DNA of 64,000 nucleotides from Limisphaerales bacterium (GTDB lineage Bacteria > Verrucomicrobiota > Verrucomicrobiia > Limisphaerales > SXTU01). Each line of letters opens with the position of its first letter. Position 1 is the first letter of the stretch. The stretch lies in assembly GCA_009773355.1 (NCBI GenBank), contig WRPG01000002.1, positions 64,391-128,390 of the forward strand, read 5' to 3'. A program made the translations under genes and the position numbers. This document shows positions 13,792 to 35,651 of the stretch, piece after piece. Below the pieces are notes generated by a model. That model ran no database searches, was not told the origin of the DNA, and worked only from the letters and a program-made list of their open reading frames with translations.

Positions 13792-13842
13792 ACAGCCTAT
13801 TGTCAAGCCGCCAATTCTTGCTAGAGTTGGCCCCGTTCCTGA

Positions 13843-14571
13843 ATGCATACCACAGAGGCCAACGCCAATCATGACGCGCCTGTCGCCTTGGCTGCACAGC
13901 TTTCTTCTGCACTCGCGGTGGTTTCTTCCTTCACCGCCGGAACTTCCTCGACCGCTGTGCAAACCTGTTCCGTCGCCGAGGAAGCTTCTCCTCCGTCATC
14001 GCGCAAGCCTGCCCGGTCGTTGGAGAAGGTTCCTCCGGCATCGAAGAAGTTTCTTCCGCTGCCACGCCAGCAATGGACCGCCTTCAAGAACAAGGCCCGC
14101 AATCGCACCGGCACGAGCATGGGTGCCTTCCCCGTGGCCCCGGCCACCGGCACCCCGCCCGCCGCCGTTCCGGCCGGCATCTTCAAGCGCACCGCCACCC
14201 TCGTCGCCCGCATCAAGAAACACTCCGGCTACACCGACGCCATCGGTCAGGCCCTCGACATCATCGGCGCGGAACAGGCCTTCGACCCCAACACCCTCAA
14301 GCCCATCCTCGCCACCGAACTGCGCGCCGGCCACCCCGCCGTGCTCTGGATCAAAGGCCAGGCCGACGCCCTGGAATTCTGGGTGGACCGCGACAACGGC
14401 ACCTTCGTCTTCTTCCTCGCCATAGACACCGTCCCCGACTACGGGGACACCTTCGCCCTGCCCGCTCCCGGCCAGACCGCCCTCTGGAAATACAAGGCCA
14501 TCTACCGCATTGGCGACGAGCAAGTCGGCCAGTGGAGCGATGTCGTGAGCCAGGCGGTGCAGGGAGCCTAA
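13843..14571 (+). CDS. hypothetical protein with a C-terminal beta-sandwich-like domain
   Basis: Ala/Pro/Ser-rich N-terminal half. C-terminus ..LWKYKAIYRIGDEQVGQWSDVVSQAV. GC-rich block inside the island. Confidence 0.5.
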   Translation: MHTTEANANHDAPVALAAQLSSALAVVSSFTAGTSSTAVQTCSVAEEASPPSSRKPARSLEKVPPASKKFLPLPRQQWTAFKNKARNRTGTSMGAFPVAPATGTPPAAVPAGIFKRTATLVARIKKHSGYTDAIGQALDIIGAEQAFDPNTLKPILATELRAGHPAVLWIKGQADALEFWVDRDNGTFVFFLAIDTVPDYGDTFALPAPGQTALWKYKAIYRIGDEQVGQWSDVVSQAVQGA

Positions 14572-14706
14572 CATGAAAGCGACGCCCAACAACCCGACCG
14601 TCACTCCGCAGTCTGGCAAGCGGTCCAAAGTCACCACCCAGCGCCGGCATGCGCAAGGAATTCCACTCGCCGCCCGCCAGCCATTCACAGGATAGTATGA
14701 GAATGA

Positions 14707-14805
14707 GCTCCTGCCCCTTCGCCCGCTCACTGGAAACCCAAGGCCATCTGCTCTCCCGCAGACAACAGGCACTTCGGCCAATGGAGCGATGTGGTGGAGC
14801 ATTAG
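14707..14805 (+). pseudogene. remnant (last 32 codons) of a paralog of 13843-14571
   Basis: APAPSPAHWKPKAICSPADNRHFGQWSDVVEH* aligns with LPAPGQTALWKYKAIYRIGDEQVGQWSDVVSQ. It follows an in-frame TGA and lies at the GC-rich to AT-rich junction. Confidence 0.6.
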
Positions 14806-14848
14806 GGCGCAGTGGTGTGCATTTTTTTATTAAACTCAACACTTCGAA

Positions 14849-15931
14849 ATGCTGACTAGAAATCGTAAATCCCGTCTTTATTGCGGCCCTCTGAATTGGC
14901 TCGCCTTGCTTATAGCCATCGCAATCACCCAGGTGGATGCGCAACCACAGGCTCCGAGAGTGGATTTGAATTCACCAGCCGAGCTGTTCAAATTGTTCAT
15001 TCAGTCTCCGCCAACGATTACAAACATGCAGTTCCGCATGTCGTGGCCAGGTCGGGAGGCGAAATTTCCGCCGCGTTTTTACCTCGCCGCTTGGCAGGAG
15101 AATGCATACTTCATTCAAGAATTTTCATCTCTAAGCGAATTACTTTCAACAGAAACGGGAACCAATGCCATCCAAATTACTGCCAAATATGGCAATAAGT
15201 TTTGGCAGATAAATGGTCGACACAGAGCTTTGTATCAATGGGAGGATCGCGGCATCCCGACTGAGCGGACCAACGCAAATGTCATTTCGCAATTGTCAGG
15301 ACGAGTGAAATTGCAACGCGCGCTGAACTTTGGAATTGAACACGCGGACCTTGCTTCGTTGCGGTGGAAGGGTGATGAATTTAGATATACTAACTATGAC
15401 GGGTCGCAAACCATCATAGGAACATTAAAGCGAGACGACAAAGATAGAGCTTCCCAATTAATCTTGTATTATGAAGCTAGGACTATTGACTTTGCAAAAC
15501 CGCGGACCTTCAACTGGATGCTCGAATACAACTACGCAACCAATTCGCTCCCCTCATATTTACCGGAGAGAATCGCGCGCTTTGCCTATGACCCAACTGG
15601 AAAAAAGGTGCTGCTCGACGAAATTACGTTCTTGAACATTGCATTAGGCAGTGCGCCGTTGCCGCCGACAGCATTTGATCCAGAAAGGTATTTGCTCCCA
15701 GGGTTGAGTAAGACATTTTCAGTATCTAATAATCTCGTCGTCTACAATGAATCCGGTCAAGTGAAAGAGCTGTTGAACCCGAAAGATCCAAGGATACTTC
15801 AAGTTAAACGAATGGAGCAGCGCGGAACCTATTACAAGATCATTGCATTACTAACCGCTATTCCAGTGATTCTTTTATTTATACGAATCAGAAGTCAAAA
15901 GAGAAAAACAAACCAAAAACCAGAAACATGA
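14849..15931 (+). CDS. hypothetical exported protein with a C-terminal TM anchor
   Basis: Signal-like WLALLIAIAITQVDAQ. C-terminal helix IIALLTAIPVILLFI followed by a basic tail RIRSQKRKTNQK. AT-rich cassette. Confidence 0.5.
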   Translation: MLTRNRKSRLYCGPLNWLALLIAIAITQVDAQPQAPRVDLNSPAELFKLFIQSPPTITNMQFRMSWPGREAKFPPRFYLAAWQENAYFIQEFSSLSELLSTETGTNAIQITAKYGNKFWQINGRHRALYQWEDRGIPTERTNANVISQLSGRVKLQRALNFGIEHADLASLRWKGDEFRYTNYDGSQTIIGTLKRDDKDRASQLILYYEARTIDFAKPRTFNWMLEYNYATNSLPSYLPERIARFAYDPTGKKVLLDEITFLNIALGSAPLPPTAFDPERYLLPGLSKTFSVSNNLVVYNESGQVKELLNPKDPRILQVKRMEQRGTYYKIIALLTAIPVILLFIRIRSQKRKTNQKPET

Positions 15932-16311
15932 AAAAACACATCGAAGTCAGCCTAAAAGTCAAGTCACAATATGTGGCTCTGATTACAGTGCTGCTAGCCA
16001 GCTTAACCACTGTGCTTGCAGCCTGCTACCAGACGCAGGATGCAGTTTGTGTAGCGGGACCATGTGAAACTACGAGCCCCAACTGTGGATCAACCAATTA
16101 CACCGGCGTTCCGATAATGAATGATTTCAGGACTATTGTCAGGAACACAGTCGGCGACGAATCTGGCTACACTACATATTTCTCAGGGGAGGAGTGGGAG
16201 TGCAGATGGTCATGTCGCATTACTGATTGCTACAATGTTGAGATCGATGTGCCTCAAAACTCAATGGTAACGGACGCATATCTCAGTGGTAACATCTGTC
16301 CAGAAGACTAA
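15928..16311 (+). CDS. Cys-rich putative lipoprotein
   Basis: Lipobox-like LAAC after a hydrophobic helix. 8 Cys in the mature part. 4-nt overlap with the upstream gene. Confidence 0.45.
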   Translation: MKKHIEVSLKVKSQYVALITVLLASLTTVLAACYQTQDAVCVAGPCETTSPNCGSTNYTGVPIMNDFRTIVRNTVGDESGYTTYFSGEEWECRWSCRITDCYNVEIDVPQNSMVTDAYLSGNICPED

Positions 16312-16368
16312 TCTTTGAATAAGCCGGTCGTGAATCACACAGCGATTCACGATCGGCCAATGTAAATA

Positions 16369-16827
16369 GTGAAATTAAGCTTCCCCCTATTATTTGTCCG
16401 ATCTTCCGTTGTTATACTCGCATCGATTGCGACTGCTAAAATCGTTTCCAGCTTTGGCAACTCGCCAATTCTTTTTCGCATTGATCCTTTACTCGGGATA
16501 CCCCTTCAAACGCTTTTTTTTGTTATTGGCACTGCTGAACTTTTGTCTGCGTTCGCCATCGTGCGCTTTGGATGTAAGTGGCAATCATACCTCTTGATCT
16601 CTCTATTAGGAGCGCAATTTCTAGCTTATCGATTCGCCCAATGGCATTTCAAGTTAGATGCTTCATGTCCTTGTTTAGGAACACTAACTTCTCGGTTTGG
16701 TTTAAATCCAGCCGCAGTAGACATGGGCCTTACATGGGTGGCGCTTTACATGTTTATTGGTGGTTCATTGCTGCTAGTGGCGTCTGAGAATGAAAAGAAA
16801 ACTGCTAACAGCACTGCTGCTTTATAA
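16369..16827 (+). CDS. four-TM membrane protein, MauE/DoxX-like
   Basis: Four hydrophobic helices and a SCPCLG motif at the start of the last helix, resembling the C-x-C motif of MauE-type proteins. GTG start. Confidence 0.35.
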   Translation: MKLSFPLLFVRSSVVILASIATAKIVSSFGNSPILFRIDPLLGIPLQTLFFVIGTAELLSAFAIVRFGCKWQSYLLISLLGAQFLAYRFAQWHFKLDASCPCLGTLTSRFGLNPAAVDMGLTWVALYMFIGGSLLLVASENEKKTANSTAAL

Positions 16828-17902
16828 AATAGTATTTTTCATCTTTGTCTTTCTGGCATTGGAATTGATTCCTATGCCAGAACAGCGAGGCTACATACCT
16901 ACCTACATGAAGTGGCGTAGCTTAGCCGAGCCGGGACCCGCGATGCACTTTGCGGCTTGGGACGGTGCGTTCTACTTGCACATTGAAGAATTCTGGTATC
17001 GAAAGGGTGCTGACACATGCGCCTTCTATCCCCTGCTGCCGGCGCTGATAAAAATCACTTCGCTCATCACTTTCGACAATTCTCTATTTGCTGGACTGTT
17101 GCTGACAAACACTTTTTCCGTTCTCGCTGCGCTAATGTTGTATGCGCTAGCGCTACAGCTGCATGGTGAGCGCGTTGCTATCATATCTGTTTTAATCCTC
17201 TTGTCTCATCCGGGTGCATTATTTCTCTCATTTATTTATACGGAGTCCCTGTTCCTATTTCTTAGCCTCAGTTTTTTCTTCTGCCTGTTTAACCGTCGTT
17301 TTGGTTGGGTTGCCATTCTCGGAGTTCTCTTGCCGCTAACGAAGGCAGTTGGTATTTTTTGCCTAGTGCCACTGGCATACAGCCTTTGGGAAAAGAAGGA
17401 AAACCTTAAACAATACTGGGTGCTCTTGACTCCGATTTTAGGTTATGCGATCTACTTGCTTATAATGTATTGTTCGACCGGCAATGCATTCGAGGGCTTC
17501 AAGGCACAACAAATGTTCCCTAGCAAACCGATGATAAGCAACATTTTTGACCTTCCAAAGGCAGTCAATGCTTTTTTAAGCCCTCTAGAATTGCATGGGA
17601 TGCTAAACTCCGCGTTGGATCGTGGCATGTTTATATTCTTTATAGCATCGTTATATTTGATGTTTAAACACAATAGGGCACTTTTTGTTTACGGCTTGGT
17701 CATCGGATTAGTCCCAGCGCTTGCAGCGACATTCATGTCATATTCAAGAAACGTGCTAATGTGCTTCCCGATGATTTTTGTCATTGCATTGTTTCTCAAA
17801 GATGAAGCGATGGCGGAAATACGTTGGTTTGTGATAGCTATCTTGTTGGCCATTCAAGCCTGTTTGCTAGTTCGTTACATCCATTTTGGCTGGGCCGGCT
17901 GA
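16790..17902 (+). CDS. GT-C fold membrane glycosyltransferase, PIG-V/mannosyltransferase-like
   Basis: About 9-10 TM segments. N-terminal loop [35 protein letters not shown] resembles the WD..Y..IA..GY...AFFPLYP signature of PIG-V-like enzymes. Confidence 0.55.
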
Positions 17903-17945
17903 TTGGGAAGTTGAAGCCAAAAATTTGATAATACCCTACAAATCT

Positions 17946-18638
17946 ATGAAATCTAATCGAAACGGATTCACTCTAATGGAGCTGCTTTTGGTTATTGCGA
18001 TCATTGGAGTTCTTGTGGCGCTTCTGCTCCCCGCTTTGCAAAGCGCCAAAGATAAAGCGCGGCAGTCGGTTTGCAAATCCAATCTTAAGCAACTGGGCAC
18101 TGCATTCTCACTCTATACGGATGCGCACCGTGGAGCTTTTCCAGCTTCAGGATCGACGTTTTATGGACCGCACCCCGAAGATTGGATTTGGTGGCAGACC
18201 AACAGGATTATTGAGAAGAGCGCAATTGCTGCATTTCTTTCGACAGCTTTGACCAAGAAGCTTCTGAGTTGTCCGTCGGATACGCTTGTAAGACAGACTC
18301 CGAGCAGCGTGAGCACTAACGGTTACTACCAATTCAGCTTCACGTTTAACAGTATCTGGCCGACAAATAACTCAGAAAATTTGGGAATGGCGACAATTAT
18401 AACGACAAATCGCACAGCTTTGCGATTCCGAATGGAGCAAATTAAATCTCCGGCAAACAAAATAATGTTGCTGGAGGAGGATCAGGCAACGATTACCAAT
18501 GGTCGATGGACACCAAGAGCAAACCCAGTAACTACTCGTCACGGAGGCAAAGGCGATGCGGTATTTGCCGATGGTCATGTTGAGGCGATTACGCCATCGA
18601 CTAGTCGCGACCCAGCATACTGCATTCCATCATTATGA
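17946..18638 (+). CDS. prepilin-type N-terminal cleavage/methylation protein, H-X9-DG (DUF1559) family
   Basis: [25 protein letters not shown] at the N-terminus. C-terminal [17 protein letters not shown]. Confidence 0.85.
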
Positions 18639-18704
18639 AAAAATGGCTTTATGTGTATCAACCTATGCCTTCCATCCGATACGTAGACACATCCTATAAT
18701 TTAA

Positions 18705-18941
18705 GAACGCTATTATCCATACAGGCAGGCCGGATGGCTCGGGCACGTCAATCCTTACTACATGATCGATTTCCCGAGTGATCGGCACAACCGGGCCGGC
18801 AATCTCTCGTTTGCCGACGGCCATGTCGAAACGCACGCCTGGGTTGAGGCAAGCACGCATCCAGCACATGCCACTCCACGCACCCATACCACGCAAGCGA
18901 CCGGGATGTGCGCTGGTTGCACCAACATGCAACCGAGATGA
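18705..18941 (+). pseudogene. remnant of the C-terminus of a second H-X9-DG pseudopilin-like gene
   Basis: The frame opens after a TAA. YMIDFPSDRHNRAGNLSFADGHVETHAWV is the H-X9-DG signature. No N-terminal part is present. Confidence 0.55.
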
Positions 18942-18942
18942 G

Positions 18943-19356
18943 ATGAATTGGCCGCTGCTGCATCAAGCGGTTCGATTTGGAGTCGTGGGCTTGATGGGGG
19001 TGGGGATTGACATGGGTTCTTTGGCGCTCCTGCAGAAGCTCGGCTGGATTGAAAGCCACTTGGTTGCCTGCAAAATCGCGGCTGCGGAATTGGCATTGCT
19101 GTTTAACTTTTTTTGGAACGAACACTGGGTGTTTCGGGAGATTAACCCTGCTGGGTTTTCGCGCGGTTGGGAAAAACGGCTGGTATGGTTTCAGGTTGTG
19201 TGCGGATTTGGCTTGGTAGGGTGCGCGTTGCTACTGCGATTGTTTCATCAGGGATGGGGCTGGAATCTCTGGCTGGCCAATCTTATCGCTATCATCATCG
19301 CTGCTGGCTGGAACTTCACGCTTGCGCGTATAGCGTGGGTCTTGCCGAAGCGGTGA
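18943..19356 (+). CDS. GtrA-family membrane protein
   Basis: MNWPLLHQAVRFGVVGLMGVGIDMGSLALL.. and ..LLFNFFWNEHWVF..AAGWNFTLARIAWV, with four TM helices. The track start at 18778 is an extension over the remnant. Confidence 0.75.
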   Translation: MNWPLLHQAVRFGVVGLMGVGIDMGSLALLQKLGWIESHLVACKIAAAELALLFNFFWNEHWVFREINPAGFSRGWEKRLVWFQVVCGFGLVGCALLLRLFHQGWGWNLWLANLIAIIIAAGWNFTLARIAWVLPKR

Positions 19357-19706
19357 ATTCTGCCAATTCCTCCACCTTTCGCCATCGCATTGACCCTGTC
19401 ACCGCCGCTTGCATGAGCACGATGACGATGTTCGGCCGGTGTGGCAACGGCAGGGCGAACCACGAATCGCCCTCGGTCAATATTACGAGCTTGCTTGGGT
19501 CTGCGGCGAGTTTTCTTGATGTATTCATCGACCTTAGATTGTGGCGGTGGCATTTTGGGCATAGGTTGGAGTGGATTTCGAGTGATGCTACGCATTTGAA
19601 CCCAAACGTCAATTCCGCTGTGATTTCTACGATCTACATACATGATATGTAGGGGCTACCGCCCGTCACCACCCCATTTCCACGGCTTAACCGCCGCCCA
19701 CTACCT

Positions 19707-20071: not shown

Positions 20072-20282
20072 GTTTCCGCGTCTGGATGGGAATCCCGTCT
20101 CCGCATATCCTGTGAGCGAAAGCCTCCCCATTCGGATTTCAAAACCAGCCGCCATTACCTCACCGGCCTGTCCCCAAACACTCTGCCGGCGTTTGCGCAC
20201 TTCGACTACACGCCACCACGGAAGGAAGTTCAACGACACGGGCACTTCCTCCGTGACCGGAGTGGCGGCTGGTTTTGCAACC

Positions 20283-21617
20283 ATGAAAGACGAACCCCGT
20301 ATCACCATTGGCGAGCGCGAAGGCTGGGGGGAACTCCGGCTTTTTGACATTTCTGTCGCCGACCAGCGCCAGCATATTTACATCATCGGGAAAACGGGAT
20401 CGGGCAAGACGACTCTATTACGAAATCTCATCGTGCAGCACATCGCCCTGGGGCATGGCGTTGGATTGATTGACCCTCACGGGGATTTAGCCGAGGAACT
20501 GTTGCACCACATTCCGCCCAAGCGCGCTGACCATCTGGTGTATTTCAATCCTGGAGACATTGAGTTTCCCATCGGCCTAAACTTGCTCGCCAATGTCGCA
20601 CCCGAAGACCGGCACCTGGTGGCGTCCGGCATTGTGGGCGCGTTCAAGGGCATCTGGCGTGAGTCCTGGGGTCCGCGTTTGGAATACATCCTCTACAACG
20701 CCGTCTCGGCGCTCCTTGATTGCCGGAACGCCACTCTCTTGGGCGTCAACCGAATGCTCACCGATGACACCTTCCGGGCGAAGGTGGTTCGGCAAATCAA
20801 AGACCCGTTTATCCGGGCGTTTTGGGCGGAGGAATATGCGGGCTACGACGAGCGGTTCAAGCGCGAGGCCATCGCGCCGATTCAGAACAAGCTCGGCCAG
20901 TTCCTTTTGAATCCGGTGGCTCGGAACATTCTGGGCCAGGTGAAATGCAAGGTGAAGATTCCATTCATCATGGACAACGAGCGGCTGTTCATCGCCAACC
21001 TGTCGAAAGGCCGGCTTGGACATGACAAGGCGAACCTGCTCGGCTCGCTGCTCGTGACCCAATTTCAACTTGGCGCGATGGCGCGGACGAACCGGCCCGA
21101 AGAGGAACGCCGCGATTTCTACCTGTTCATCGACGAGTTCCAGAATTTTTCCACCGACGCCTTTGCCTCGATTCTGGCGGAAGCGCGCAAGTATCGCCTG
21201 TGCATTTCTCTCTCGCACCAATACATTGACCAGCTTCCGCTGCCCGTCCGGCAGGCGGTGTTCGGCAACGTGGGAACGCTGATTGCCTTTCGCATCGGCA
21301 ATACCGATGCCGAGGTGATGGAAAAGGAGTTTGGCAACGCAATCCCCGCGAGCGCGCTCGTTGATCTGAATCGTTACGAGGCGGTGGTGAAGCTGCTTGA
21401 AGACGGCAGCAATCGGGAACCGTTCCGCGCGAGGATGCTGCCACCGCTGGAAAACCGCATTGGCCGGAAGGACAAGCTCATTGCCCGGTCACGGGAGCGG
21501 TTTGCCATGACGCGCGCGAAGATTGAGGACAAGTTGAAGCGGTGGATGGTGTCGGCCGAGCCAAAAAAGAAGAGGCAAGCTAATTGGATGCACCTTAAGA
21601 AGTATCACATTTTGTGA
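20283..21617 (+). CDS. TraD/VirD4/HerA-type P-loop ATPase without TM domain (coupling-protein-like)
   Basis: Walker A IIGKTGSGKTT. Walker B LFIDEFQNF. ARKYRLCISLSHQYIDQL and VGTLIAFRIGNTDAEVMEKEF. Paralogous to the core of 39195-42275. ATG at 20283 is preferred, because the upstream extension is non-coding-like and highly structured. Confidence 0.8.
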   Translation: MKDEPRITIGEREGWGELRLFDISVADQRQHIYIIGKTGSGKTTLLRNLIVQHIALGHGVGLIDPHGDLAEELLHHIPPKRADHLVYFNPGDIEFPIGLNLLANVAPEDRHLVASGIVGAFKGIWRESWGPRLEYILYNAVSALLDCRNATLLGVNRMLTDDTFRAKVVRQIKDPFIRAFWAEEYAGYDERFKREAIAPIQNKLGQFLLNPVARNILGQVKCKVKIPFIMDNERLFIANLSKGRLGHDKANLLGSLLVTQFQLGAMARTNRPEEERRDFYLFIDEFQNFSTDAFASILAEARKYRLCISLSHQYIDQLPLPVRQAVFGNVGTLIAFRIGNTDAEVMEKEFGNAIPASALVDLNRYEAVVKLLEDGSNREPFRARMLPPLENRIGRKDKLIARSRERFAMTRAKIEDKLKRWMVSAEPKKKRQANWMHLKKYHIL

Positions 21618-21662
21618 CATTTCAAGCTTTATGTCGTATTTTTTCGATCTACAATCTCACGT

Positions 21663-23138
21663 ATGGCTTTCAAATACTCACTTTTAATCGGCGTGGAGAA
21701 GTTTATCGATCCAAAGATTCCCAACGTTGGCCACGCCCAAAAGGACGCGGAGGCTTTGGCCGCAGTCTTGACAAAGATTGGCTATTCGCAAAGCGAGCAG
21801 ACTATCTTGGTGAACGAAAAGGCAACATGCACAAACGTCAAATACAATTTGAAGCAGATACTACGTTGCGCGAAGCCAGAGGATAGCATCCTCATTTTCT
21901 TTTCGAGTCACGGCTATTCCAACGGCGGAAAAACGTATCTTGTGTGCTACGACACACGTCAAGGTGACATGATCGGAACTTCAGAATCCTTGGAAGAAGT
22001 CTTTGCGCTATTGCGGACGACAGAAAGTAAACAAGTGCTTCTTTTCTTGGATTGCTGCCACGCAGGTTTGCAGTTTCCAGAGGGTGAAAAGAGTCTGTTA
22101 GCAACAATGACTTATGATGAAGTTCAAGAGTTCTTTAGTCAAAGCGAATACCGCGCTGCCTTCGCTTCGTGTAAGGATTCAGAAAAGTCTTACTGGTCTG
22201 ACGTTCTTGAGCACGGTGTCTGGACACATGTTCTTATTCAGGCCCTGGAAGGCAAAGAAAAAAGGATCTTAGAGGAAAAACGATACCTTCGTGCTGCCAA
22301 TTTGCAGGACTATCTCGCAAAGGCCGTCCCGGAACAATTGCGAATAGTGTTCTCGGAAAGGCGAACGCAGACGCCAATTCTTTTCGGCTCACTGAACAAT
22401 AATTTTCTTGTTGCGGATTTAGGCCCGCTCTTGGCGAAAGAAATATCTGAAACCGGAAATCAGGATTTTCCAGTAAAAGATTCCACATTCCGTAATGTTG
22501 AACGTGGTTCCGTAAAAAACTTAAGCGGTTTCGTAAAAGGACACAAAGTCCTTCCATATAAAAGCGCCGCCACGGAATCTTTTGTTCAAAACATTGGAGC
22601 TCCTGATGTAGAAGAAAAGGCCAATGAGCTATATGATCGGATTAAGAGCACGTTCGCTTATATTCGCAAAGATGTTAGCGTCTCCACGTCGGGGGCAAGT
22701 GCAAGTATCCGGGCAAAAGATTTCAATGTGGACTTTGAGCTTAAACAGAGCGCATCTGATCCAACTGAATACGTTTTAACCACTGAAGTCTCACACTTTT
22801 CGAGCCCCGCGATTGTTCATGCGGACACATTTAATGAAGTTTTCCAAGGAAATGTATCAACCCTCCGTATTGAGTTTCAGAACTCGCGAAATGTTGCGGA
22901 GTTTATTGATAAGATTGAAGAAACGCAAAACGAGGCGATTACGATCAATTCTTACCCGCCCGATAATTCTTTTTGTAAGTTCACAGTGGAGGGCGTATCG
23001 GCATCATTCGTTTTACACGCCAAACATTTGGATGTTAAACTGCCAGGAAAGCCTCCACGAGACATGGTTGAAGCACTGATTCAAGCAGGCAAAGTGTTGC
23101 TTCTGGATGACACAACGCCGAAGTTACTGACGCCGTGA
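21663..23138 (+). CDS. caspase-fold (peptidase C14-like) protease with an uncharacterised C-terminal domain of about 270 aa
   Basis: LLIGVEKF..AQKDAEALAAVL. His motif ILIFFSSHGY (H83). Cys motif LLFLDCCHAG (C131/C132). Markedly AT-richer than both neighbours. Confidence 0.7.
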   Translation: MAFKYSLLIGVEKFIDPKIPNVGHAQKDAEALAAVLTKIGYSQSEQTILVNEKATCTNVKYNLKQILRCAKPEDSILIFFSSHGYSNGGKTYLVCYDTRQGDMIGTSESLEEVFALLRTTESKQVLLFLDCCHAGLQFPEGEKSLLATMTYDEVQEFFSQSEYRAAFASCKDSEKSYWSDVLEHGVWTHVLIQALEGKEKRILEEKRYLRAANLQDYLAKAVPEQLRIVFSERRTQTPILFGSLNNNFLVADLGPLLAKEISETGNQDFPVKDSTFRNVERGSVKNLSGFVKGHKVLPYKSAATESFVQNIGAPDVEEKANELYDRIKSTFAYIRKDVSVSTSGASASIRAKDFNVDFELKQSASDPTEYVLTTEVSHFSSPAIVHADTFNEVFQGNVSTLRIEFQNSRNVAEFIDKIEETQNEAITINSYPPDNSFCKFTVEGVSASFVLHAKHLDVKLPGKPPRDMVEALIQAGKVLLLDDTTPKLLTP

Positions 23139-23241
23139 GTGCTATGATTTAACAGCAGCCGTGAGAACTTCCAGCAAACTTGCCCAAAAGCGCAAACCCT
23201 GACGCCTTCTTTGCCAGCCTGACTTTCGGCAAAGTGGAGGG

Positions 23242-24144
23242 ATGGAATCCCGCCTTCCCCGGTTCAAGCGTGTCCACACGGTAGTTCCCATCGAACTAAC
23301 CGACCGCGACCACCACATCATCCGGCTCGTCCGCCGGTATCGCTTTCTGCGTTCCAAACAAATCTCGGCTCTTGTGGGCGGCAGTCCGCAGCAGCTTTTG
23401 CGACGATTGAAGCTGCTCTACCACCACGGCTTTTTAGAACGCCCCCGCTGCCAGATTGATTATTACCACCAGCCCGGCTCCCGCAGCATCGCCTACGGGT
23501 TAGGGAATAAAGGAGGAGCGTTGTTGAAGCAGGAACTCCGCATTGCCGTGCGTCCCGCTTCTTGGGGTGAGAAGAACCGCGCAGTTGGCCGGATGTTCCT
23601 TGAGCACGCGCTTTTGGTTTCCGACGTGATGGTGACAATTGAACTGGCCTGCCGTAAACGAGGGATTCGACTCGTCACCGAGAGAGAACTTGCGCTTCCC
23701 GGCCAGCGCCAACCGTTCCAATGGAGGGTGAACATACACAGTCGGTTGAAACTTGGCGTCATCCCGGATCGCGTGTTCGCCCTGGAATTTCCCGACACCA
23801 GCGGCCAGACCCAGCGCGTGCATTTCTTCCTCGAAGCCGACCGGGGCACCATGCCGGTGACACGCCGCAATCTTTCCCAGACTTCGTTCCGCCGCAAGCT
23901 CCTCGCGTATGAGGCGACCTGGACACAAAACCTGCATCATACCCGTTTTGGTTTCCATCGCTTCCGGGTGCTCACGGTCACCACGAGTGCCGCGCGGGTG
24001 AAATCGCTGGTAGCAGCGTGTTCACAATTGGAGCGTGGACACGGCCTCTTTCTGTTTGCCGACCGAACAATTTTGTCGGGCGATATATTTTCTTCGACCT
24101 GGCAGACCGGCAAGCCGGGTGAGGCAGGCAGTTTGCTCGATTAG
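23242..24144 (+). CDS. replication-relaxation (Replic_Relax) family protein
   Basis: LTDRDHHIIRLVRRYRFLRSKQISALVGGSPQQLLRRLKLLYHHGFLERP is a winged-helix N-terminus typical of the family. ..FFLEADRGTM.. Context with a TraD-like ATPase. Confidence 0.7.
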   Translation: MESRLPRFKRVHTVVPIELTDRDHHIIRLVRRYRFLRSKQISALVGGSPQQLLRRLKLLYHHGFLERPRCQIDYYHQPGSRSIAYGLGNKGGALLKQELRIAVRPASWGEKNRAVGRMFLEHALLVSDVMVTIELACRKRGIRLVTERELALPGQRQPFQWRVNIHSRLKLGVIPDRVFALEFPDTSGQTQRVHFFLEADRGTMPVTRRNLSQTSFRRKLLAYEATWTQNLHHTRFGFHRFRVLTVTTSAARVKSLVAACSQLERGHGLFLFADRTILSGDIFSSTWQTGKPGEAGSLLD

Positions 24145-24270: not shown

Positions 24271-25305
24271 ATGTCGAAATCAAAGTTCGTTGACTTCAGG
24301 GCCGTCAAAGCGGCCATCACCATGGAACAGGTGCTTGAGCACTACGGCCTGCTTTCCAAGTTCAAACGGAGCGGAGACAGCTTGAGCGGTCCCTGTCCGA
24401 TTCACAAAGGCAACAACCCGACACAGTTCCGGGTGAGCACCAGCAAGAACGTCTGGAACTGCTTTTCGGAATGCAAACACGGTGGCAACACCCTGGACTT
24501 CATTGCCCGGATGGACGACGTGAGCATTCTCGCGGCGGCCAACAAGGCCATTGAATGGTTTCAGCTCGATCCCGAAGCCATGTCAGGGGATTCCGAAGCC
24601 GAAGGCAGGGAGCCGAGTGAAGCGCCGAAGGCCGGGGATGTTCCCCGACCGAAGCCAGCCGCAAAACCGGCATCGGTTCAAGAGAACGGAACGCCCAACA
24701 AGCCGTTGCAGTTCCGGCTCGACAAGCTTGAGCGCACGCATCCCTACCTGACCGAGCGCGGCCTCACGCCGGAAACCATCGTGGACTTTGGCGTCGGCTT
24801 TTGTGCCAAGGGCATGATGGCCAATCTCATTGCCATTCCGATACACAACGTCGAGGGCAAGGTCGTGGCGTATGCCGGACGCTGGCCGGGTGAACCCGCC
24901 GAGGACAACCCGAAATACAAACTCCCACCCGGTTTCCGAAAATCGTTGGAGTTGTTCAATCTTGACCGGGCCTGCAAGGAATCACCCGACAAGCCGCTCG
25001 TCATCGTCGAAAGATTCTTCGGCGCGATGAAATTGCATCAGCACGGCTACCGTAAGGTGGTGGCCCTCATGGGCAGCACCCTGTCCGCCGCGCAGGAGGA
25101 GTTGATTCGCCGACACACCGACAGCAACAGCCAGGTCATCGTCATGCTCGACGAGGACGAGGCGGGCCACGCGGGGCGAGAGGACATCGCCGTGCGCTTG
25201 TCCCAGTTCGTCTTCGTGAAGGTTCACGCGTTCGAGAAGGAAGGAATGCAGCCGGAGCACCTGAGCGCCGAGGAAGTGCAGCAACTCATCGGAGGTGTCC
25301 TGTGA
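24271..25305 (+). CDS. DNA primase-like protein (CHC2 zinc finger plus Toprim)
   Basis: CPIHKGNNPTQFRVSTSKNVWNCFSECKHGGNTLDFI is a CHC2 finger. Toprim motifs: VIVERFFGAMKL .. VALMGSTLS .. VIVMLDEDEAGHAG. Confidence 0.8.
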   Translation: MSKSKFVDFRAVKAAITMEQVLEHYGLLSKFKRSGDSLSGPCPIHKGNNPTQFRVSTSKNVWNCFSECKHGGNTLDFIARMDDVSILAAANKAIEWFQLDPEAMSGDSEAEGREPSEAPKAGDVPRPKPAAKPASVQENGTPNKPLQFRLDKLERTHPYLTERGLTPETIVDFGVGFCAKGMMANLIAIPIHNVEGKVVAYAGRWPGEPAEDNPKYKLPPGFRKSLELFNLDRACKESPDKPLVIVERFFGAMKLHQHGYRKVVALMGSTLSAAQEELIRRHTDSNSQVIVMLDEDEAGHAGREDIAVRLSQFVFVKVHAFEKEGMQPEHLSAEEVQQLIGGVL

Positions 25306-26069: not shown

Positions 26070-27143
26070 ATGAGTGCAGTTATGGCAGCACCAGAGCGGG
26101 TCAGTTTGTATTACCGCGAAGGATCATCGGACAAGGTGTATCAGGCCGCGATTGAACCGGCAGGTGAATTGTTCGTTGTCAACTTCGCCTACGGTCGGCG
26201 TGGCTCGACGCTCACGACCGGGACGAAGACGGCTTCACCCGTGGATTACGGCACGGCGAAGCGGATCTTCACCAAACTGGTCAACGAAAAGAAAGCCAAG
26301 GGTTACACCGAAGGCGAGAACGGCACGCCGTATCAGCACACCGACAAGCAAGCGTCGGGGATATTGCCCCAGTTGCTCAATCCCATCGAGGAAGCCGGCG
26401 TGGAGAGGCTGCTGCATGATGATGATTATTGCGCGCAGGAGAAATTCGACGGGCGGCATCTCCTCGTCCGCAAGCAGGACGAGCACCTCGAAGGCATCAA
26501 CAAGAAGGGATTGCTCATCGGATTGCCGGAGACCGTGTCAAACGACCTCCGCAAGCTGCCCGGCAGTTTCATTCCCGATGGTGAATCCGTCGGTGATGAT
26601 TATCACGTCTTCGACCTGCTTGAACTGAACGGTGAAAACGTGCGGCCATTGCCGTATCGGACCCGGCTCGCGCGGCTGGTGAACCTGTTTTCGTTCCGCA
26701 CGCAGCATCCTCATGTCCGATTGGTCGAGACCGCGTTCACGACCGAGCGGAAGACCGCACTGTGGCAGCGGTTGCGGCGGGAGAACCGCGAGGGCATCGT
26801 CTTCAAACGCTTGGATGCGCCCTACACGCCGGGCAAGCCTAGCAGCGGCGGAGCGCAGTTGAAATTCAAGTTCGTCGCCACGCTGTCGGCGATTGTTGCC
26901 AAGGTGAACACCCGGCGCAGCGTGGAAATCAGCCTGCTCCAAGGCAGAAACCTGATTTCGTGCGGCAACGTCACCATCCCGGCCAATCACGACATTCCCA
27001 AAGTCGGTGCGGTCGTGGAAGTGCGCTTTCTCTACGCCCATCGCGAGAGTCACGCCCTCTATCAGCCGGTGTATCTCGGGCCGCGTGATGATGTGGAAGC
27101 CGGTGAGTGTCTGGCCGCTCAGCTCAAATACAAGGCAGAGTAA
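26070..27143 (+). CDS. WGR-domain / ATP-dependent DNA ligase fusion
   Basis: WGR: VSLYYREGSSDKVYQAAIEPAGELFVVNFAYGRRGS..AKRIFTKLVNEKKAKGYTE. Ligase motif I EKFDGRH. EGIVFKRLDAPYTPGK..LKFK (motifs IV/V). OB-like C-terminus. Confidence 0.8.
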   Translation: MSAVMAAPERVSLYYREGSSDKVYQAAIEPAGELFVVNFAYGRRGSTLTTGTKTASPVDYGTAKRIFTKLVNEKKAKGYTEGENGTPYQHTDKQASGILPQLLNPIEEAGVERLLHDDDYCAQEKFDGRHLLVRKQDEHLEGINKKGLLIGLPETVSNDLRKLPGSFIPDGESVGDDYHVFDLLELNGENVRPLPYRTRLARLVNLFSFRTQHPHVRLVETAFTTERKTALWQRLRRENREGIVFKRLDAPYTPGKPSSGGAQLKFKFVATLSAIVAKVNTRRSVEISLLQGRNLISCGNVTIPANHDIPKVGAVVEVRFLYAHRESHALYQPVYLGPRDDVEAGECLAAQLKYKAE

Positions 27144-27297: not shown

Positions 27298-27627
27298 ATG
27301 GATGTTCATTGTTCAACCTGCGGGGAACCGTGGGACACATATCACCTCTGGCATGAGGCCGTGTTTGAAACGGGCTTGAGCCACGAGGAAGCCACGGCGT
27401 GGCGTTCACTGCCCCGCGCCGAGAAGCTCACCGAGCGTTACCGGCAGGAGTTCCGCGCCACTGGTTGGGAATTCGGCCAAGGCGTCATCAATGTCATTCG
27501 TTGCCCGGGCTGTCCCAAGGACGCACAACCCAACGTGGCTCGCGTTCACACCAAAGCCGCCTTGGAAGAACTCTTGGGTGACGACGAGGACGGACTGGCC
27601 GCCACCTTCGAGGACTACCGGTTATGA
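27298..27627 (+). CDS. hypothetical Zn-ribbon-like protein
   Basis: CSTCGEPW ... CPGCPKD Cys pairs. AAGGAG RBS 8 nt upstream. ATGA overlap with the next gene. Confidence 0.55.
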   Translation: MDVHCSTCGEPWDTYHLWHEAVFETGLSHEEATAWRSLPRAEKLTERYRQEFRATGWEFGQGVINVIRCPGCPKDAQPNVARVHTKAALEELLGDDEDGLAATFEDYRL

Positions 27628-28367
27628 TCCCCAAGAAACCGCCGCCCGGCGATTTCCGAAAAATCCTTGGACGCCTTTCCCATCGGCACAGCACCCGGCA
27701 AGTCTTCGACGCCTTCCTTTGCTTCGCAGCCTGTGCGCTCGCCGCCCAGACCCGCGAGGCGGAATACGTCGAAGAAGCCAAGCGCTGGGAAAAGCCGGAC
27801 TTGGAATTGTTCGCGGAAGCGTTCGCCGCGCTCGTCAGCGAAATGGAGTCCCGGCCCTTTGAAGACCTCATCGGCGGATACTACCTGGAGTTCGCCCTGT
27901 CCCAAAAGGGGCAGCAGTGGAACGGCGAGTTCCATACTCCCAAACCCATCTGCGACCTCATGGCCCGGATGACACTGGGCGATCTGGAATCATTGCCGGC
28001 GGAAGGCCCGATCACCGTTTGTGAACCGGCCTGTGGCGCGGGTGCGATGATTCTGTCGCTGGCCGAAGTCTGCCCGCCCGAGGTCCGCCGCCGTCTGCGC
28101 GTGACCGCCGTGGACATCAACCGCACCGCCTGCAACATGGCGTTCATCAACACGACCCTCTGGGGCATCCCCACGCGAGTCATCCACGGCAACTCGTTGT
28201 CCCTGGAATGTTGGGCCGCCTGGTCGAACATCCATTACCTCGCGCCGTGGTTGCCGCTGACGCTTCGCATCCAAACGCCCGAGGCGTTAGAACAAGGCCA
28301 GCCGCCGCAACCGGCTGAAATGGAGCGCATCAAGGCTTCCCTCGTTCAGCAGGAGCTGGTGTTTTGA
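27624..28367 (+). CDS. N6-adenine-methyltransferase-like SAM-binding protein lacking the catalytic (N/D)PP(Y/F) motif
   Basis: GEFHTPKPICDLMARM (motif X), VCEPACGAGAMIL (motif I), TAVDIN, IHGNSL. No NPPY/DPPY-type tetrapeptide anywhere and no target-recognition region. 247 aa. Confidence 0.65.
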   Translation: MIPKKPPPGDFRKILGRLSHRHSTRQVFDAFLCFAACALAAQTREAEYVEEAKRWEKPDLELFAEAFAALVSEMESRPFEDLIGGYYLEFALSQKGQQWNGEFHTPKPICDLMARMTLGDLESLPAEGPITVCEPACGAGAMILSLAEVCPPEVRRRLRVTAVDINRTACNMAFINTTLWGIPTRVIHGNSLSLECWAAWSNIHYLAPWLPLTLRIQTPEALEQGQPPQPAEMERIKASLVQQELVF

Positions 28368-28411: not shown

Positions 28412-28474
28412 GCCGCCTCCGGCAAAGCTGCCCGTCTTCATCGAAACGGCGCGGGGACATACGATTCAGGGTGG
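28412..28474 (+). promoter_or_regulatory. copy 3 of the 63-nt repeated element
   Basis: Same 63-nt sequence as copy 2. 38 nt upstream of the ATG at 28513. Confidence 0.6.
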
Positions 28475-28512
28475 TTAGTTCTTCCACAAATCAACCACCA
28501 CAGGAGCATCAC

Positions 28513-29829
28513 ATGAAAAATCAGACATCGTATGATCGTATCACCGACCGTATCACCGCCTTGCTTACGCAAGGCACCGTTCCCTGGCACAAGCCGTGGA
28601 AAGCAAAGACCGGGCTGCCTCGGAACTTCGTCAGTCAAAAACCGTATCGCGGCATCAACGTCTTCTTGTTGATTGCCATGAGCTATGAATCACCGTTCTG
28701 GCTCACGTTCCGCCAGGCAGCACAGCTTGGCGCCTGCGTCCGCAAGGGCGAGAAGGCGTGCCCCGTCGTGTTCTGGAAACAGTGGCAGATTGAAGACAAG
28801 GACTCCGGCGAGCAGAAGAAGATTCCGCTGCTTCGCTTTCACCACGTCTTCAACGTCACCCAATGCGACGGGCTGAACATCGGCACCGAGCCGGTGCCAG
28901 CATCTGTCAATGGGATCTCCAAGCCAGAAGATATTGTGGCGCAGATGCCCCAGCCACCCGTCGTGAAGCACGGCATGTCCCGCGCCTATTATTCCCCTCA
29001 CGAAGATTGCGTGGGCTTGCCGACACGGGAACGGTTCGACACCCCGGAAGGCTACTACGCCACCTTGTTCCATGAGCTGGTCCATTCCACCGGCCACGAG
29101 AAGCGGTTGAAACGAGCCGCCCTCACGGAGTCCGCCGGCTTCGGTTCCAATCCCTACTGCAAAGAGGAATTGATTGCCGAAATGGGCGCGGCGTTTCTGT
29201 GCGGGCATGCTGAAATATCGGAGCGGGTGATTGACAACTCGGCGGCGTATCTCAACGGCTGGCTGGAGCAGTTGCAGAACGACAAAACTCTGATTGTGCA
29301 GGCGGCCGCACAGGCGCAGAAGGCCTGTGACTTCATCCTCGATGTCCGGCCCGAAGACGAAGGGCCGGCACCACAGCAGCCGAAGGAGTTCAAAGTCGTC
29401 GCGCTGCGGGAGTGCCCGACGCCTGAAGAAATGCAACTCTGCGACACGCCCCAGAGCGCCGCCGACTACTGGCGGGCGCACATCACCACGCACCCGTATT
29501 TCAACCCGGAGTGCGAATGCTTCGTGGTGTTGCACTTGAACACGAGGCGGCGCATCCGAGGCCACAACCTGGTTTCGACCGGCACGATGGACACGATTCT
29601 TGTCCATGCACGCGAGGTGTTCCGCACCGCCATCGCGAGCGGTGCGAGCGCCATTGTGCTCATGCACAACCATCCCAGCGGGGAGCCGGCACCGAGCGAA
29701 GCGGACATCAAAGTGACGCGCGACCTCATCCGGGCCGGGCAACTCCTAAAAATGGAGGTGCTGGACCACATTGTGGTCGGGAACCCAACGCATGCTAGTC
29801 TGCGGGAACTGGGATACTTCTTTCAGTGA
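28513..29829 (+). CDS. ArdC-like antirestriction protein (ssDNA-binding N-domain plus HExxH metalloprotease) fused to a RadC-like JAB/JAMM domain
   Basis: ArdC-N: GTVPWHKPW..PYRGINVFLL..PFWLTFRQAAQLGACVRKGEKA. Protease: TLFHELVHSTGHEKRL. RadC/JAMM: ASAIVLMHNHPSGEPAPSEADIKVTRDL. The track start at 28471 lies inside the repeat element. Confidence 0.8.
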   Translation: MKNQTSYDRITDRITALLTQGTVPWHKPWKAKTGLPRNFVSQKPYRGINVFLLIAMSYESPFWLTFRQAAQLGACVRKGEKACPVVFWKQWQIEDKDSGEQKKIPLLRFHHVFNVTQCDGLNIGTEPVPASVNGISKPEDIVAQMPQPPVVKHGMSRAYYSPHEDCVGLPTRERFDTPEGYYATLFHELVHSTGHEKRLKRAALTESAGFGSNPYCKEELIAEMGAAFLCGHAEISERVIDNSAAYLNGWLEQLQNDKTLIVQAAAQAQKACDFILDVRPEDEGPAPQQPKEFKVVALRECPTPEEMQLCDTPQSAADYWRAHITTHPYFNPECECFVVLHLNTRRRIRGHNLVSTGTMDTILVHAREVFRTAIASGASAIVLMHNHPSGEPAPSEADIKVTRDLIRAGQLLKMEVLDHIVVGNPTHASLRELGYFFQ

Positions 29830-30042: not shown

Positions 30043-33000
30043 GTGATGAAAGTGCCCAGTCCAACTTTTCAAGCTAAAGGTTCTCCCTCCTTTGGATTTT
30101 TGTTTCCACTTAATCCACAAGGTGATCCGGCCACTGTTGGCGAAACAGAAAGGACCGGAACAGGAGAAAAAACCTGCCGCCCGAGGAGGATTATTGATTG
30201 GAAGCATCTCCTCTTTCCATTCCTGTTTTTTGTCCTAATTGCGATTCAAGCAGCTCCCGGTGCATTTACAGTGATTTCACCGGGCAGCACTCCTGCTCCT
30301 GGGGCAATCCTTTCCTCGCGAGCTCCCACATTTCGTTGGAACGCCTCGGCCGGGGCCGCAAGTTATGAATTTTATGTCCGAGATGTGACTGACAGCCCTA
30401 CCGGTCAACTTTTCACCTATCCAGTTAGCGGCACTAACACAGTGTTTCAGCCATATCCGGGTCGGTCGTATAAATGGAACGTTGGCGCTTATAGCGGCCC
30501 CAATCAGACGGGGACCTTCACACAGGCCGCCAATTCGTTTTGGTTTATATCGGCCCAATGTGACCTCTTAGTTACCGGCTCGGTTTCTTTGAGTCCAAAC
30601 CCTGTTACTGCCGGAAACACAGTGACTGTCGGTTACACTGTTAAAAACAATGGTAATGGAGATTCCGTCTCCTCTTCAAACCGCATCCAGATCAAAACCG
30701 GGTCCAGCACGACTACTCTAGTTGAAGGGTATTTTTATTTGCCCGCGATTCTGGCAGGCGCTTCCACCAACCTTTCAGCTCAGTTGTCGATTCCAAGCGG
30801 CACCTCATCAGGCACGTATTCGGTCCACACAATTCTGGATTCGCTTGATTACAATGTTCAAAGCAACACTAACAACGACATTCATTCAGAATACGACATT
30901 CTGACCATCAGCGCAGCCCAACCGCAAAGTTTCTTCCTAACATTAGTAACCAATCCGGTGATTGGTGGCTCAATTACTGCCAGCCCTGCGCCAGGAGGCA
31001 ATGGTAAATACTCGGCCAGCACGCTTGTGAATCTAACGGTTGCCCCTGGGGCAGGATATGCTTTCACTGGTTGGCAATTCAATGCCGGTTCAGGTTCGAC
31101 AGTTTCCAGCGTGCCGAACATGACGGCAACCGTCGGTATGGATAGCGACAGGACCGTCACAGCAGTTTTTTCTCAAACCGATGCTTCGGCTCCGGCGTTA
31201 ACAATCGCAAACCCGAGTGATGGGCAAACTTTTGTAAACAGTAGTATCACTGTTTCTGGCACTTCTACCGACAACAATCTTGGAAATAATGGTGTATCTT
31301 CCGTGACAATAAATGGTGTCCGGGCGAGCGGCGACACAGCCAATGGGTCAGGCACCGCTACGTGGACTGGAAGTGTTACACTAAGTCAAGCAACCACCAC
31401 CATTACAGTAGTTGCTCGTGACAATACTGTGAGTCAAAATGCAGTAACCAAAGTCATCACGGTTAATTATCAGCCAACACCTCCACCCGCTCCCACGGCC
31501 AGTTTTTCCGCTTCCGACCTCCAACCCGTGACGGGCAAGGAGGTCATTTTTGATGCGTCCGGTTCTTCTGGCAGCACGAGTTTGATGTTTGCTTGGAGTT
31601 CCGATGACGGCCAGACAGTCCCTTACAACGCCTCCAGCGCCGCCCGTCTTTCGTTCGGCTCCACGGGCACCCGCACTGTCACCCTCCAGGTGAAAGACAG
31701 TTACGATCAGGTTACCTCCACTTCACGGCAAATCACCGTTCAATCCCGCAACATTGGTGGCTCAGGGGGAAGCGGACAAGCATTCACCCCAGACCCGGTT
31801 AACATCGCCACCGGCAACTACATTTACGAGCACACTGATCTCCGCCTGCCAGGCATCGGCTTCCCATTTGAATTCAAGCGGTTCTACAACAGCAAGTTTG
31901 CCAACCAAACGGGCCGCCCAATCGGATTCGGCTGGACCCATTCCTACAACATTTCGCTGATCAGCACGACCACCAACGCGCTCATCACATTCGGGGACGG
32001 TCACGTTGAGACCCACATCCTTCAACCCGACAGCAGTTACCTCCCGGAGGCTGGCGTTTACGACCGCCTTCAGAAGATTGGCGATGGAACTTGGACGCTT
32101 ATCAACAAGGCGCAGATCCAGCAGAACTTCAACGCGCAGGGCCGGCTGGATTCCATTGTGGACAAGAACGGCAATCGGCTCGGACTGATCTACACCACCA
32201 ACCAGTTGACCTCCATCACGAACACAGCAGGACGCAGCGTCACGTTCACCATCGATCCCAACAACGGGTGCATCAGCTCCCTTTTGGACTCCATCGGGCG
32301 CACCATCCGATACGAGTATGACACGCAGACTAATCTCGTTCGAGCCGTGGACGCCAACAACCGCACGAACACGTTTGACTACGACAGCCTTCACCAGCTC
32401 ACCGACGCCTACGATGCCAAAGGCACGCGCTACGTGCGCAACGTCTATGACGCGGCCACGAAAGTTGTGGTCTCACAACTCGATGCCTACGACAAGCCCA
32501 CCTACTTGCGGTATGATTTCACCAACCGGGTGACGTGGGTCACGAACGCCCTTTCCAAAGTCGCGGTCCACACCTTCGACGACCGATTGCTAGTCACGAA
32601 CATCGTGGACGAAGCTGGCCACACAAATTCCTTCAACTACGACACGAACCGCAACCTCATCTGGTCCAGGGACAAGAACAGGAACATCACCACGTATGGC
32701 TACGACCAGCGGGGAAACGTCACGAACAAGACCGATGCCTACAGCAGCATCACGACCATCGAATACGATGCAAAGAACAACCCCACGCGCCGGGTGGACG
32801 CGCTCACCAACATCACGGCATTCGTTTACGATGGCATCGGCAATTTGACGGCCACCACTAACGCCGAGGGACACAGCAATCTCATTGCTTATGATCCACG
32901 CGGACTACCGTGGATTCTCACCGACGCGCGAGGCAACCGCACAACGAATGTTTTCGACACGCAGGCAAACCTCGTGGCCGTTGTGAATGCAAAAGGATTC

Positions 33001-35649: not shown

Positions 35650-35651
35650 CA

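Follow-up and report, generated by a model that had tools for sequence, protein, structure and literature searches.

A caspase-like protease with an uncharacterised C-terminal domain carried as single-gene cargo at a defence hotspot of a Limisphaerales mobile element

What is a caspase-like protease gene doing between two backbone genes of a bacterial mobile element? The question is raised by a 64,000-nucleotide (nt) stretch of DNA from a Limisphaerales bacterium (assembly GCA_009773355.1, contig WRPG01000002.1, positions 64,391-128,390, forward strand), referred to here as the window. An open reading frame (ORF) at 21663-23138 on the plus strand begins with ATG and encodes a 491-amino-acid (aa) protein that joins a C14 caspase-like protease to an uncharacterised C-terminal domain, as judged from the translation, its homologues and an AlphaFold2 (AF2) model. 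To its left lies the gene for a TraD/VirD4/HerA-type P-loop ATPase (20112-21617, plus strand; Pfam TrwB_AAD_bind and DUF87; start placed at 20283 by the gene caller), and to its right a Replic_Relax gene (23242-24144, plus strand; PF13814, E=3.6e-20). An original prediction, made by reading the sequence alone, had left two possibilities standing, a stand-alone abortive-infection gene and one half of a new ATPase-plus-caspase pair. Our analysis argues against the pair, and suggests that the caspase gene is a horizontally acquired single-gene cargo which probably encodes a self-contained sensor-effector immune protein acting against phages or rival mobile DNA.

The N-terminal part of the protein (aa 6-246; 21678-22400, plus strand) is a Peptidase_C14 domain of the caspase/metacaspase/paracaspase-like type. 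Pfam PF00656 matches it with 58 bits against a cut-off of 21.4 (E=1.4e-15), and the PADLOC 'caspase' model also matches the N-terminal region (E=1.7e-16). A Foldseek search with the AF2 model returned the MALT1 paracaspase (E=1.6e-12), Yca1 and GSU0716 of Geobacter (both at about 1e-9), Candida metacaspases and animal caspases, with E values ranging overall from 1.6e-12 to 1e-6. By fold and motifs the protein is a member of Peptidase C14. The caspase fold proposed in the original prediction, with the catalytic His preceding the Cys in the canonical order, was borne out by the Pfam match, by Foldseek and by alignment to Yca1.

The dyad lies within two short motifs, FFSSHGY, which carries His83, and LFLDCCHAG, which carries both C131 and C132 (codons 22053-22058). 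His83 (SSHG motif; 21909-21911, plus strand) is present in 9/9 close relatives and aligns to the GHG motif of Yca1. Although C131 (22053-22055) had been put forward as the nucleophile to mutate, it is replaced by Ser in two of the nine close relatives (P0008 and P0009) and is variable in the wider family. The predicted nucleophile is instead its neighbour C132 (D-C-C-H-A-G motif; 22056-22058, plus strand), which is invariant in the close relatives and falls on the catalytic Cys of the Yca1 DSCHSG motif in a profile alignment. All nine close-clade sequences keep H83, G84, D130, C132, H133 and G135. Among 82 diverse family members, two acidic residues (D97 and D130) show a conservation of at least 90%, and in the profile alignment to Yca1 they match acidic S1-pocket positions of metacaspases. 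Because of this match, the protease probably cleaves with Arg or Lys at P1.

The C-terminal domain is conserved over about 220 aa and is present in all nine close-family sequences; in the protein from the window it spans aa 271-480 (22473-23102, plus strand). The original prediction had recognised nothing in this part of the protein, and database searches agreed: the C-terminal 240 aa or so gave no Pfam match at E<=0.01, no NCBIfam match and no PDB sequence match. Folded alone with AF2, the domain reached a predicted local distance difference test (pLDDT) score of 87.8 and a predicted template modelling (pTM) score of 0.83, with pLDDT mostly above 90 across two predicted repeats. Repeat 1 (aa 271-394) consists of a strand (271-283), a helix (302-330), four strands (338-377) and a helix (382-394), and repeat 2 (aa 400-480) of a strand (400-405), a helix (411-421), four strands (426-459) and a helix (465-480). 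The repeat of the TATA-binding protein (TBP) has the topology S1-H1-S2-S3-S4-S5-H2, and the secondary-structure order predicted here, beta-alpha-beta4-alpha twice over, is TBP-like in this sense.

Weak Foldseek matches to this domain pointed the same way. Against PDB, the search returned TBP and S-adenosylmethionine decarboxylase (AdoMetDC), at E values of about 2e-3 and template modelling (TM) scores of about 0.3; against BFVD, the matches (E 4e-5 to 2e-3) were to TBPs of giant viruses and to the N-terminal domain of RnlA/LsoA. AdoMetDC is itself classed among the TBP-like folds (PMC7641849). The likeness of the domain to TBP, AdoMetDC and RnlA/LsoA thus lies in its predicted topology and in recurrent matches with probabilities of 0.9-1.0, yet the TM score remains near 0.3, the root-mean-square deviation is about 10 A and the identity 6-12%, with no significant internal sequence repeat and no sequence-profile match. 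The domain is predicted to fold as two TBP-like repeats, and since the scores are weak and the profile comparison of its two halves is non-significant, we treat this double repeat as a structural hypothesis and not as a family assignment. Nothing suggests that the domain binds DNA.

The full-length AF2 model, built from the nine-member family alignment, has a mean pLDDT of 82.8, and in it the N-terminus forms the first strand of the caspase fold. Inspection of the sequence revealed no signal peptide, and the two-domain protein is predicted to be cytoplasmic.

How the gene came to lie at this position can be read from the DNA around it. Over 21.5-23.0 kb the guanine-cytosine (GC) content is 0.43-0.46, against 0.58-0.60 upstream and 0.55-0.59 downstream, which confirms that the gene is much AT-richer than its flanks; the spacing of 45 nt between the ATPase stop at 21617 and the caspase start was likewise as described in the original prediction. 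Relatives of the ATPase were found at 276 loci in species-representative genomes, by record title overwhelmingly metagenome-assembled genomes of Verrucomicrobiota (Limisphaerales, Pedosphaera and similar), and 80 of these loci were fetched and are referred to here as sister elements. The order ATPase, Replic_Relax, primase is conserved among them. Similarity to the sister elements in blastn stops at 21548-21559, within the last 20 or so codons of the ATPase ORF, and resumes at 23171-23176, 67 nt before the Replic_Relax ATG, with no high-scoring segment pair overlapping the caspase gene.

These breakpoints, together with the drop in GC, delimit a variable cargo module at 21560-23174 (plus strand) that comprises the last 20 or so ATPase codons, the 45-nt spacer, the caspase gene and about 36 nt downstream. 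Given the breakpoints and the lack of any segment pair on the caspase gene, the swapped-in module holds this gene alone; the remaining listed ORFs of the module are shorter and lie inside the caspase ORF. The caspase is absent from 80/80 of the fetched ATPase loci, and the cargo insertion between ATPase and Replic_Relax gene that had been proposed is supported. Two independent assemblies from other samples (L012 and L013) encode an identical protein in the same ATPase-caspase-Replic_Relax order, and the junctions are therefore not a chimeric or assembly artefact. The ATPase gene called in L012 is 444 aa long.

Fifty-eight sister elements carry both the ATPase and the Replic_Relax gene, and the distance from the stop of one to the start of the other ranges from -168 to 7875 nt. 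There is no insert (a gap of at most 250 nt) in 17 of them and an insert in 41, usually of lower GC than its flanks. We scanned 96 proteins from these inserts. L075 holds a complete QatABCD system (QatA 1.5e-145, QatB 3.9e-44, QatC 1.2e-107, QatD 3.4e-88), and L067 an IetS (6.7e-54) along with an IetA match (1e-77) in the same cargo set, attributed to the adjacent 387-aa gene; the two form an Ietron. A 1051-aa SIR2/STALD protein is found in L038 and a type II restriction enzyme in L043. Other inserts encode type II/IIG methylases and restriction enzymes, TIR_2, a KAP nucleoside triphosphatase (NTPase), double-GTPase/GAP1/GASH genes and an nSTAND NTPase; HTH regulators, transposases and an integrase also occur in them. 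The ATPase/Replic_Relax junction is a variable defence-cargo hotspot.

The closest sister element, whose ATPase is 90% identical, carries at this junction (L014:9632-10939) a 436-aa protein with an adenylate/guanylate cyclase domain and a weak match to PycC, the Pycsar cyclase; no obvious effector gene adjoins it. Defence cargo is also found at the hotspots of P2/P4 and of the SXT integrative and conjugative element. Defence hotspots in mobile elements are already known, moreover, from pipolins (PMC11551731) and from Pseudomonas genomic islands (PMC12629846). The junction resembles known sites of this kind in its conserved flanks, in a content that runs from empty to several kb and in the differing defence systems of individual copies, but it belongs to an element with serine recombinase, Replic_Relax, primase and ArdC genes, in genomes of the Verrucomicrobiota type.

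We then asked how widely the two-domain protein occurs. A word-indexed search gave eight full-length homologues with 31-66% identity, and a second one with the 82-member diverse alignment added no relatives. The apparent tiny family of eight was a sensitivity artefact: when the C-terminal domain alone was used in an exhaustive profile search, 812 cluster representatives (50% identity) were recovered at E<=1e-3, and 635 at E<=1e-10. Among the best 149 of these 812, 81 reach 400 aa or more, carry the domain at about residues 270-490 and, without exception, align to a caspase-like N-terminus; no swapping of the C-terminal domain onto other effector domains was seen in the same 149. Pfam C14 is passed at E<=1e-3 by 66 of the 82 diverse members (the window protein included), the His is kept in 69 and both His and Cys in 53.

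Fifty-seven of the best 149 matches are shorter than 300 aa, and most of these are Met-initiated. A split-gene origin for the short, C-terminal-only proteins was considered and rejected, as no split versions occur in 95 loci; caspase and C-terminal domain share a single ORF in 36/36 full-length metagenome loci. One short protein (P0017) comes from a full-length gene that has been disrupted and lies among broken integrases; L190 holds a relative that is a disrupted pseudogene. P0027 and P0032, on the other hand, are genuinely stand-alone C-terminal-domain proteins; stand-alone proteins of this kind, about 225 aa long, are encoded at L191:1421-2092 and L189:278-961. Since they exist, the C-terminal domain can function without a fused caspase. 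Viral contigs and a phage collection yielded no full-length relative, and the family is not notably phage-borne.

The neighbourhoods of caspase-family genes were examined in loci retrieved with a pattern that contains the Cys motif, so that all of them keep the Cys by construction and the neighbourhood results apply to such members. When three genes on each side were clustered across 40 loci, no recurrent neighbour emerged, near-duplicate contigs aside. A same-strand gene ends within 30 nt of the caspase start in 13 of 34 family loci, and one begins within 30 nt downstream in 8 of 32; these tightly coupled genes are not homologous to each other. Three of them were identified, as a DUF499 protein, a DUF1156 protein and a DEAD/DEAH helicase. 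DUF499 corresponds to the DrmB of DISARM and DUF1156 to the DISARM methylase DrmMI. Caspase-family genes lie 3-4 nt after the DUF499 (DrmB-like) gene at L004:2-1549 and after the DUF1156 (DrmMI-like) gene at L122:3353-6970, and by this close succession they form part of DISARM-like loci. The caspase of L004 takes the place that the PLD nuclease DrmC usually has in DISARM operons.

Other contexts point in a similar direction. One family locus lies with Mrr, DUF4145, a DUF2779/Cas4-like nuclease and a DUF433/DUF5615 toxin-antitoxin pair, another with GmrSD_N, HEPN and an integrase. A scan of 105 neighbours found pAgo (3-4), TIR-APAZ (2), SoFic (2), type I, II and III restriction-modification genes, MADS components and Fic. 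On the Agrobacterium tumefaciens plasmid pAtK224b, a 521-aa homologue annotated only as 'caspase family protein' (WP_173995036.1) is accompanied by an integrase, an N6-methylase, AbiEi/AbiEii, a restriction endonuclease and a pair of ATP-binding protein and UvrD helicase that looks Gabija-like. In qualitative terms, the family is often found among defence genes. In further plasmid matches (H4, H5, H8, H10-H13, H15 and H18) the caspase domain sits inside genes annotated as DEAD/DEAH box helicases; these look like fusions, an architecture distinct from caspase plus C-terminal domain.

The closest functional analogue of the protein is the effector of type IV Thoeris, in which a caspase-like protease is coupled to a C-terminal sensor domain of unknown kind and acts against phages (Rousset et al., Science 2025; 10.1101/2024.10.24.620036). 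The type IV Thoeris operon has two genes and includes a short TIR protein that makes N7-cADPR, and its caspase is reported to cleave after Arg/Lys (10.1101/2024.10.24.620036). Both proteases are C14-type with the catalytic Cys at a similar position (C129 in PsCaspase, C132 here). PsCaspase works through abortive infection, and it is found on mobile elements and close to other defence genes. The difference lies in the TIR partner, as the window protein has neither an adjacent nor a recurrent one, its neighbours being the ATPase and the Replic_Relax gene. Clustering the neighbours of 43 caspase-only loci revealed no recurrent small partner. The version of PADLOC used here (v2) predates type IV Thoeris. 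A plasmid match taken up as a candidate type IV Thoeris effector turned out to be a GASH/EAD1 system.

Comparison with other caspase relatives gives a similar mixture of likeness and difference. The metacaspases, paracaspases and orthocaspases (Yca1, MALT1, GSU0716) share the fold, the His-Cys order, the D-x-C-H-x-G motif and the acidic pocket residues with the window protein, but they are only 10-18% identical to it, and the context here is a mobile-element cargo hotspot. The C-terminal partner also differs, being an Ig3 domain in MALT1 and the p10 region in metacaspases. The best NCBIfam match of the caspase domain is the EACC1-associated caspase NF047832 (E=8e-24), at 84.3 bits below its 140-bit cut-off. 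EACC1-associated and GTPase-associated (GAP1/GASH/EAD1) caspases, such as H17 on an Enterobacter plasmid, are likewise caspase effectors of predicted conflict systems, but they have a different C-terminal domain, and no EACC1/EAD adaptor domain or partner was seen with the window protein. No gasdermin gene was found among the window neighbours in the PADLOC scan, nor is there a recurrent neighbour in the family.

Based on this, a working model can be proposed. The C-terminal domain would recognise an infection cue (perhaps a protein of the phage, perhaps a nucleic acid or small molecule), and recognition would drive dimerisation or oligomerisation of the caspase domain. Caspase-fold enzymes generally need dimerisation for activity. 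Once active, the protease would use its His83/Cys132 site to cut proteins of the cell or the phage, probably after Arg/Lys, and this cleavage would abort the infection, so that the protein would protect the host and hence the element from phages or rival mobile DNA. The stand-alone sensor-protease of the original prediction survives in this model as far as context can carry it, namely through the lack of a conserved neighbour in 40 loci, the defence hotspot and the defence-gene neighbours.

Several observations weigh against an immune role or against parts of the model. The defence function is read from genomic context. The association with defence genes is a qualitative one, and some of the 105 scanned neighbours are housekeeping enzymes; the stand-alone C-terminal-domain protein of L191 also lies in a housekeeping context, between an OpuAC-type binding protein and an oxidoreductase. 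No known defence-system model spans the whole protein, PADLOC covering the caspase domain only. On the structural side, the full model has a pTM of 0.56, which leaves the relative orientation of the two domains uncertain, the TBP-like assignment is weak at a TM of about 0.3, and an internal sequence repeat is not significant (hhalign of the two C-terminal halves, probability 3.5%). The predicted promoter in the 45-nt spacer is a 9/12 consensus match only, and the scan for promoters and terminators around the gene gave weak consensus matches near shuffle expectation.

The loss of the dyad in about a third of the wider family is the main unexplained fact. Homologues that lack the dyad had been named in the original prediction as a finding that would speak against it, and here the result is divided: the close clade keeps both residues in 9/9 sequences, while 29 of the 82 two-domain members (about 35%) lack the His and/or the Cys and have clearly degenerate motifs. 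Proteolysis is thus not a universal mechanism of the family. In these 29 members D97, D130 and the C-terminal domain are still conserved, and they may be pseudo-proteases with a non-catalytic role.

It is very improbable that the ATPase and the caspase form a two-gene system in which the ATPase scaffolds or activates the protease as in SIR2-HerA. The two genes do share a strand at a distance of 45 nt, the window ATPase has weak PADLOC matches to HerA and mad8, and its last 20 or so codons belong to the swapped-in module. However, the ATPase is a backbone gene in 276 loci, Replic_Relax follows it directly in 17 of 58 sister elements, and no relative of either window ATPase, of the relaxase or of the primase turned up across 399 kb from 46 caspase-family loci. 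With co-occurrence in 0/80 ATPase loci and 0/46 caspase loci, and the pairing seen only in identical copies of the same element, the ATPase is refuted as a functional partner, and the new pair of the original prediction falls with it; the ATPase-effector co-occurrence of the SIR2-HerA and DUF4297-HerA systems is not matched here. A looser dependence is conceivable, with the caspase as a promiscuous accessory effector that plugs into NTPase- or helicase-based systems of a DISARM-like or restriction-modification-like kind and depends on an upstream partner. The coupled genes of DrmB-like, DrmMI-like and helicase type fit such a role, as do the caspase-helicase fusions on plasmids. We nevertheless consider it unlikely, as the coupled partners are unrelated to one another, a tightly coupled upstream gene is missing from 21 of 34 loci and the sole adjacent NTPase in the window is an element backbone gene. 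Independent genes are, in addition, commonly embedded inside defence operons.

We also give little credence to an orphan signalling effector in the manner of type IV Thoeris, whose C-terminal domain would bind a nucleotide-derived messenger from a TIR protein or cyclase encoded elsewhere. The similar position of the catalytic Cys in the two proteins favours this idea, but no partner recurs in the 40 family loci, TIR_2 is present in only 2 of the 105 neighbours (the two TIR-APAZ proteins found by PADLOC in the same set being of the pAgo-partner type), and neither the module nor the positions beside the caspase gene in the window hold a TIR or cyclase gene. The remaining alternative dispenses with immunity altogether: the gene would stabilise the element as an addiction or toxin gene, or would encode a regulatory protease or a scaffold whose caspase-like fold has no catalytic use. 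The dyad-less third of the wider family, the housekeeping contexts and the disrupted relative in L190 can all be cited for it. Set against these are the dyad in the window clade, kept in every sequence at 31-66% identity, the bona fide defence systems that occupy the same insertion site in sister elements and the richness of family contexts in defence genes, and an absence of any immune role seems to us improbable. The reading that we prefer remains the self-contained sensor-effector immune protein.

The element that carries this cargo is an island of about 37 kb (about 8-45 kb of the window) with a GC content of about 57%, set in a host backbone of about 0.67 GC. It belongs to a type of integrative mobile element that is widespread in Verrucomicrobiota, and no tRNA gene turned up in the 64-kb window. 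Two large serine recombinases (9944-11794 and 42607-44097) lie near the GC boundaries at about 8 kb and 45 kb, and a second, paralogous TraD/VirD4/HerA-type ATPase (39195-42275; 1026 aa with a long N-terminal extension) is 32% identical to the first over 432 aa. The island may be composite or nested. Downstream of Replic_Relax, the backbone continues with a DnaG-type primase (24271-25305; Pfam primase domains), and the island also encodes DUF6166. A 357-aa ORF with WGR and ATP-dependent DNA/RNA ligase domains (26070-27143) adjoins an N6-methylase (27624-28367) and occurs in a minority of sister elements. An anti-restriction-type backbone gene at 28471-29829, also present in some sister elements, encodes a 452-aa fusion in which the ArdC N-terminal domain is joined to an MPTase-PolyVal metallopeptidase and to a RadC-like JAB domain.

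Further genes of the island lie outside this backbone. A 1868-aa Rhs-repeat protein (30043-36230; CARDB, DUF6531, Flg_new_2) is directly followed by a 192-aa ORF with no Pfam match, which could be an immunity gene, and then by a 710-aa RCC1/Ig/fn3 protein (36303-38435) and a 234-aa ORF with no Pfam match (38484-39188). The Rhs region is toxin-like cargo within the element. None of the 80 sister elements shares the stretch at 12500-19500, which separates the serine recombinase from the conserved backbone; because 3-5 of them have the recombinase no more than 8 kb from the ATPase, it is probably a second variable cargo region. It includes a pocket of 44% GC at 15-18 kb with four genes (14849-15931, 15928-16311, 16369-16827 and 16790-17902), of which the three scanned gave no Pfam match and all four no PADLOC match, as well as a DUF1559/N-methyl pilin-like gene (17886-18638) and a GtrA-like gene (18778-19356).

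In the searched literature we found no description of the caspase plus C-terminal domain architecture or of the ATPase/Replic_Relax hotspot. The junction itself forms a natural catalogue of cargo; many of its about 40 different inserts have no known function, and they offer a place to look for new defence genes in Verrucomicrobiota, a poorly studied phylum.

For the protein family the implications may reach further. It is abundant and uncharacterised, and is carried in defence hotspots and islands across phyla. It was only in recent work, on gasdermin systems and on type IV Thoeris, that caspase-like proteases were shown to carry out bacterial immunity, each time with a separate activator. We can tentatively imagine, though we would not yet favour it, that the family of at least 812 clusters is a widespread single-polypeptide immune receptor-protease, in which the double TBP-like repeat, as a new kind of pattern-recognition module, directly switches on the caspase without adaptor, TIR or NTPase and the catalytically dead third serve as decoys or regulators. 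If this were true, a protease fused to its own sensor would provide a minimal model for how a caspase is switched on, and bacterial immunity would gain a new sensor fold.

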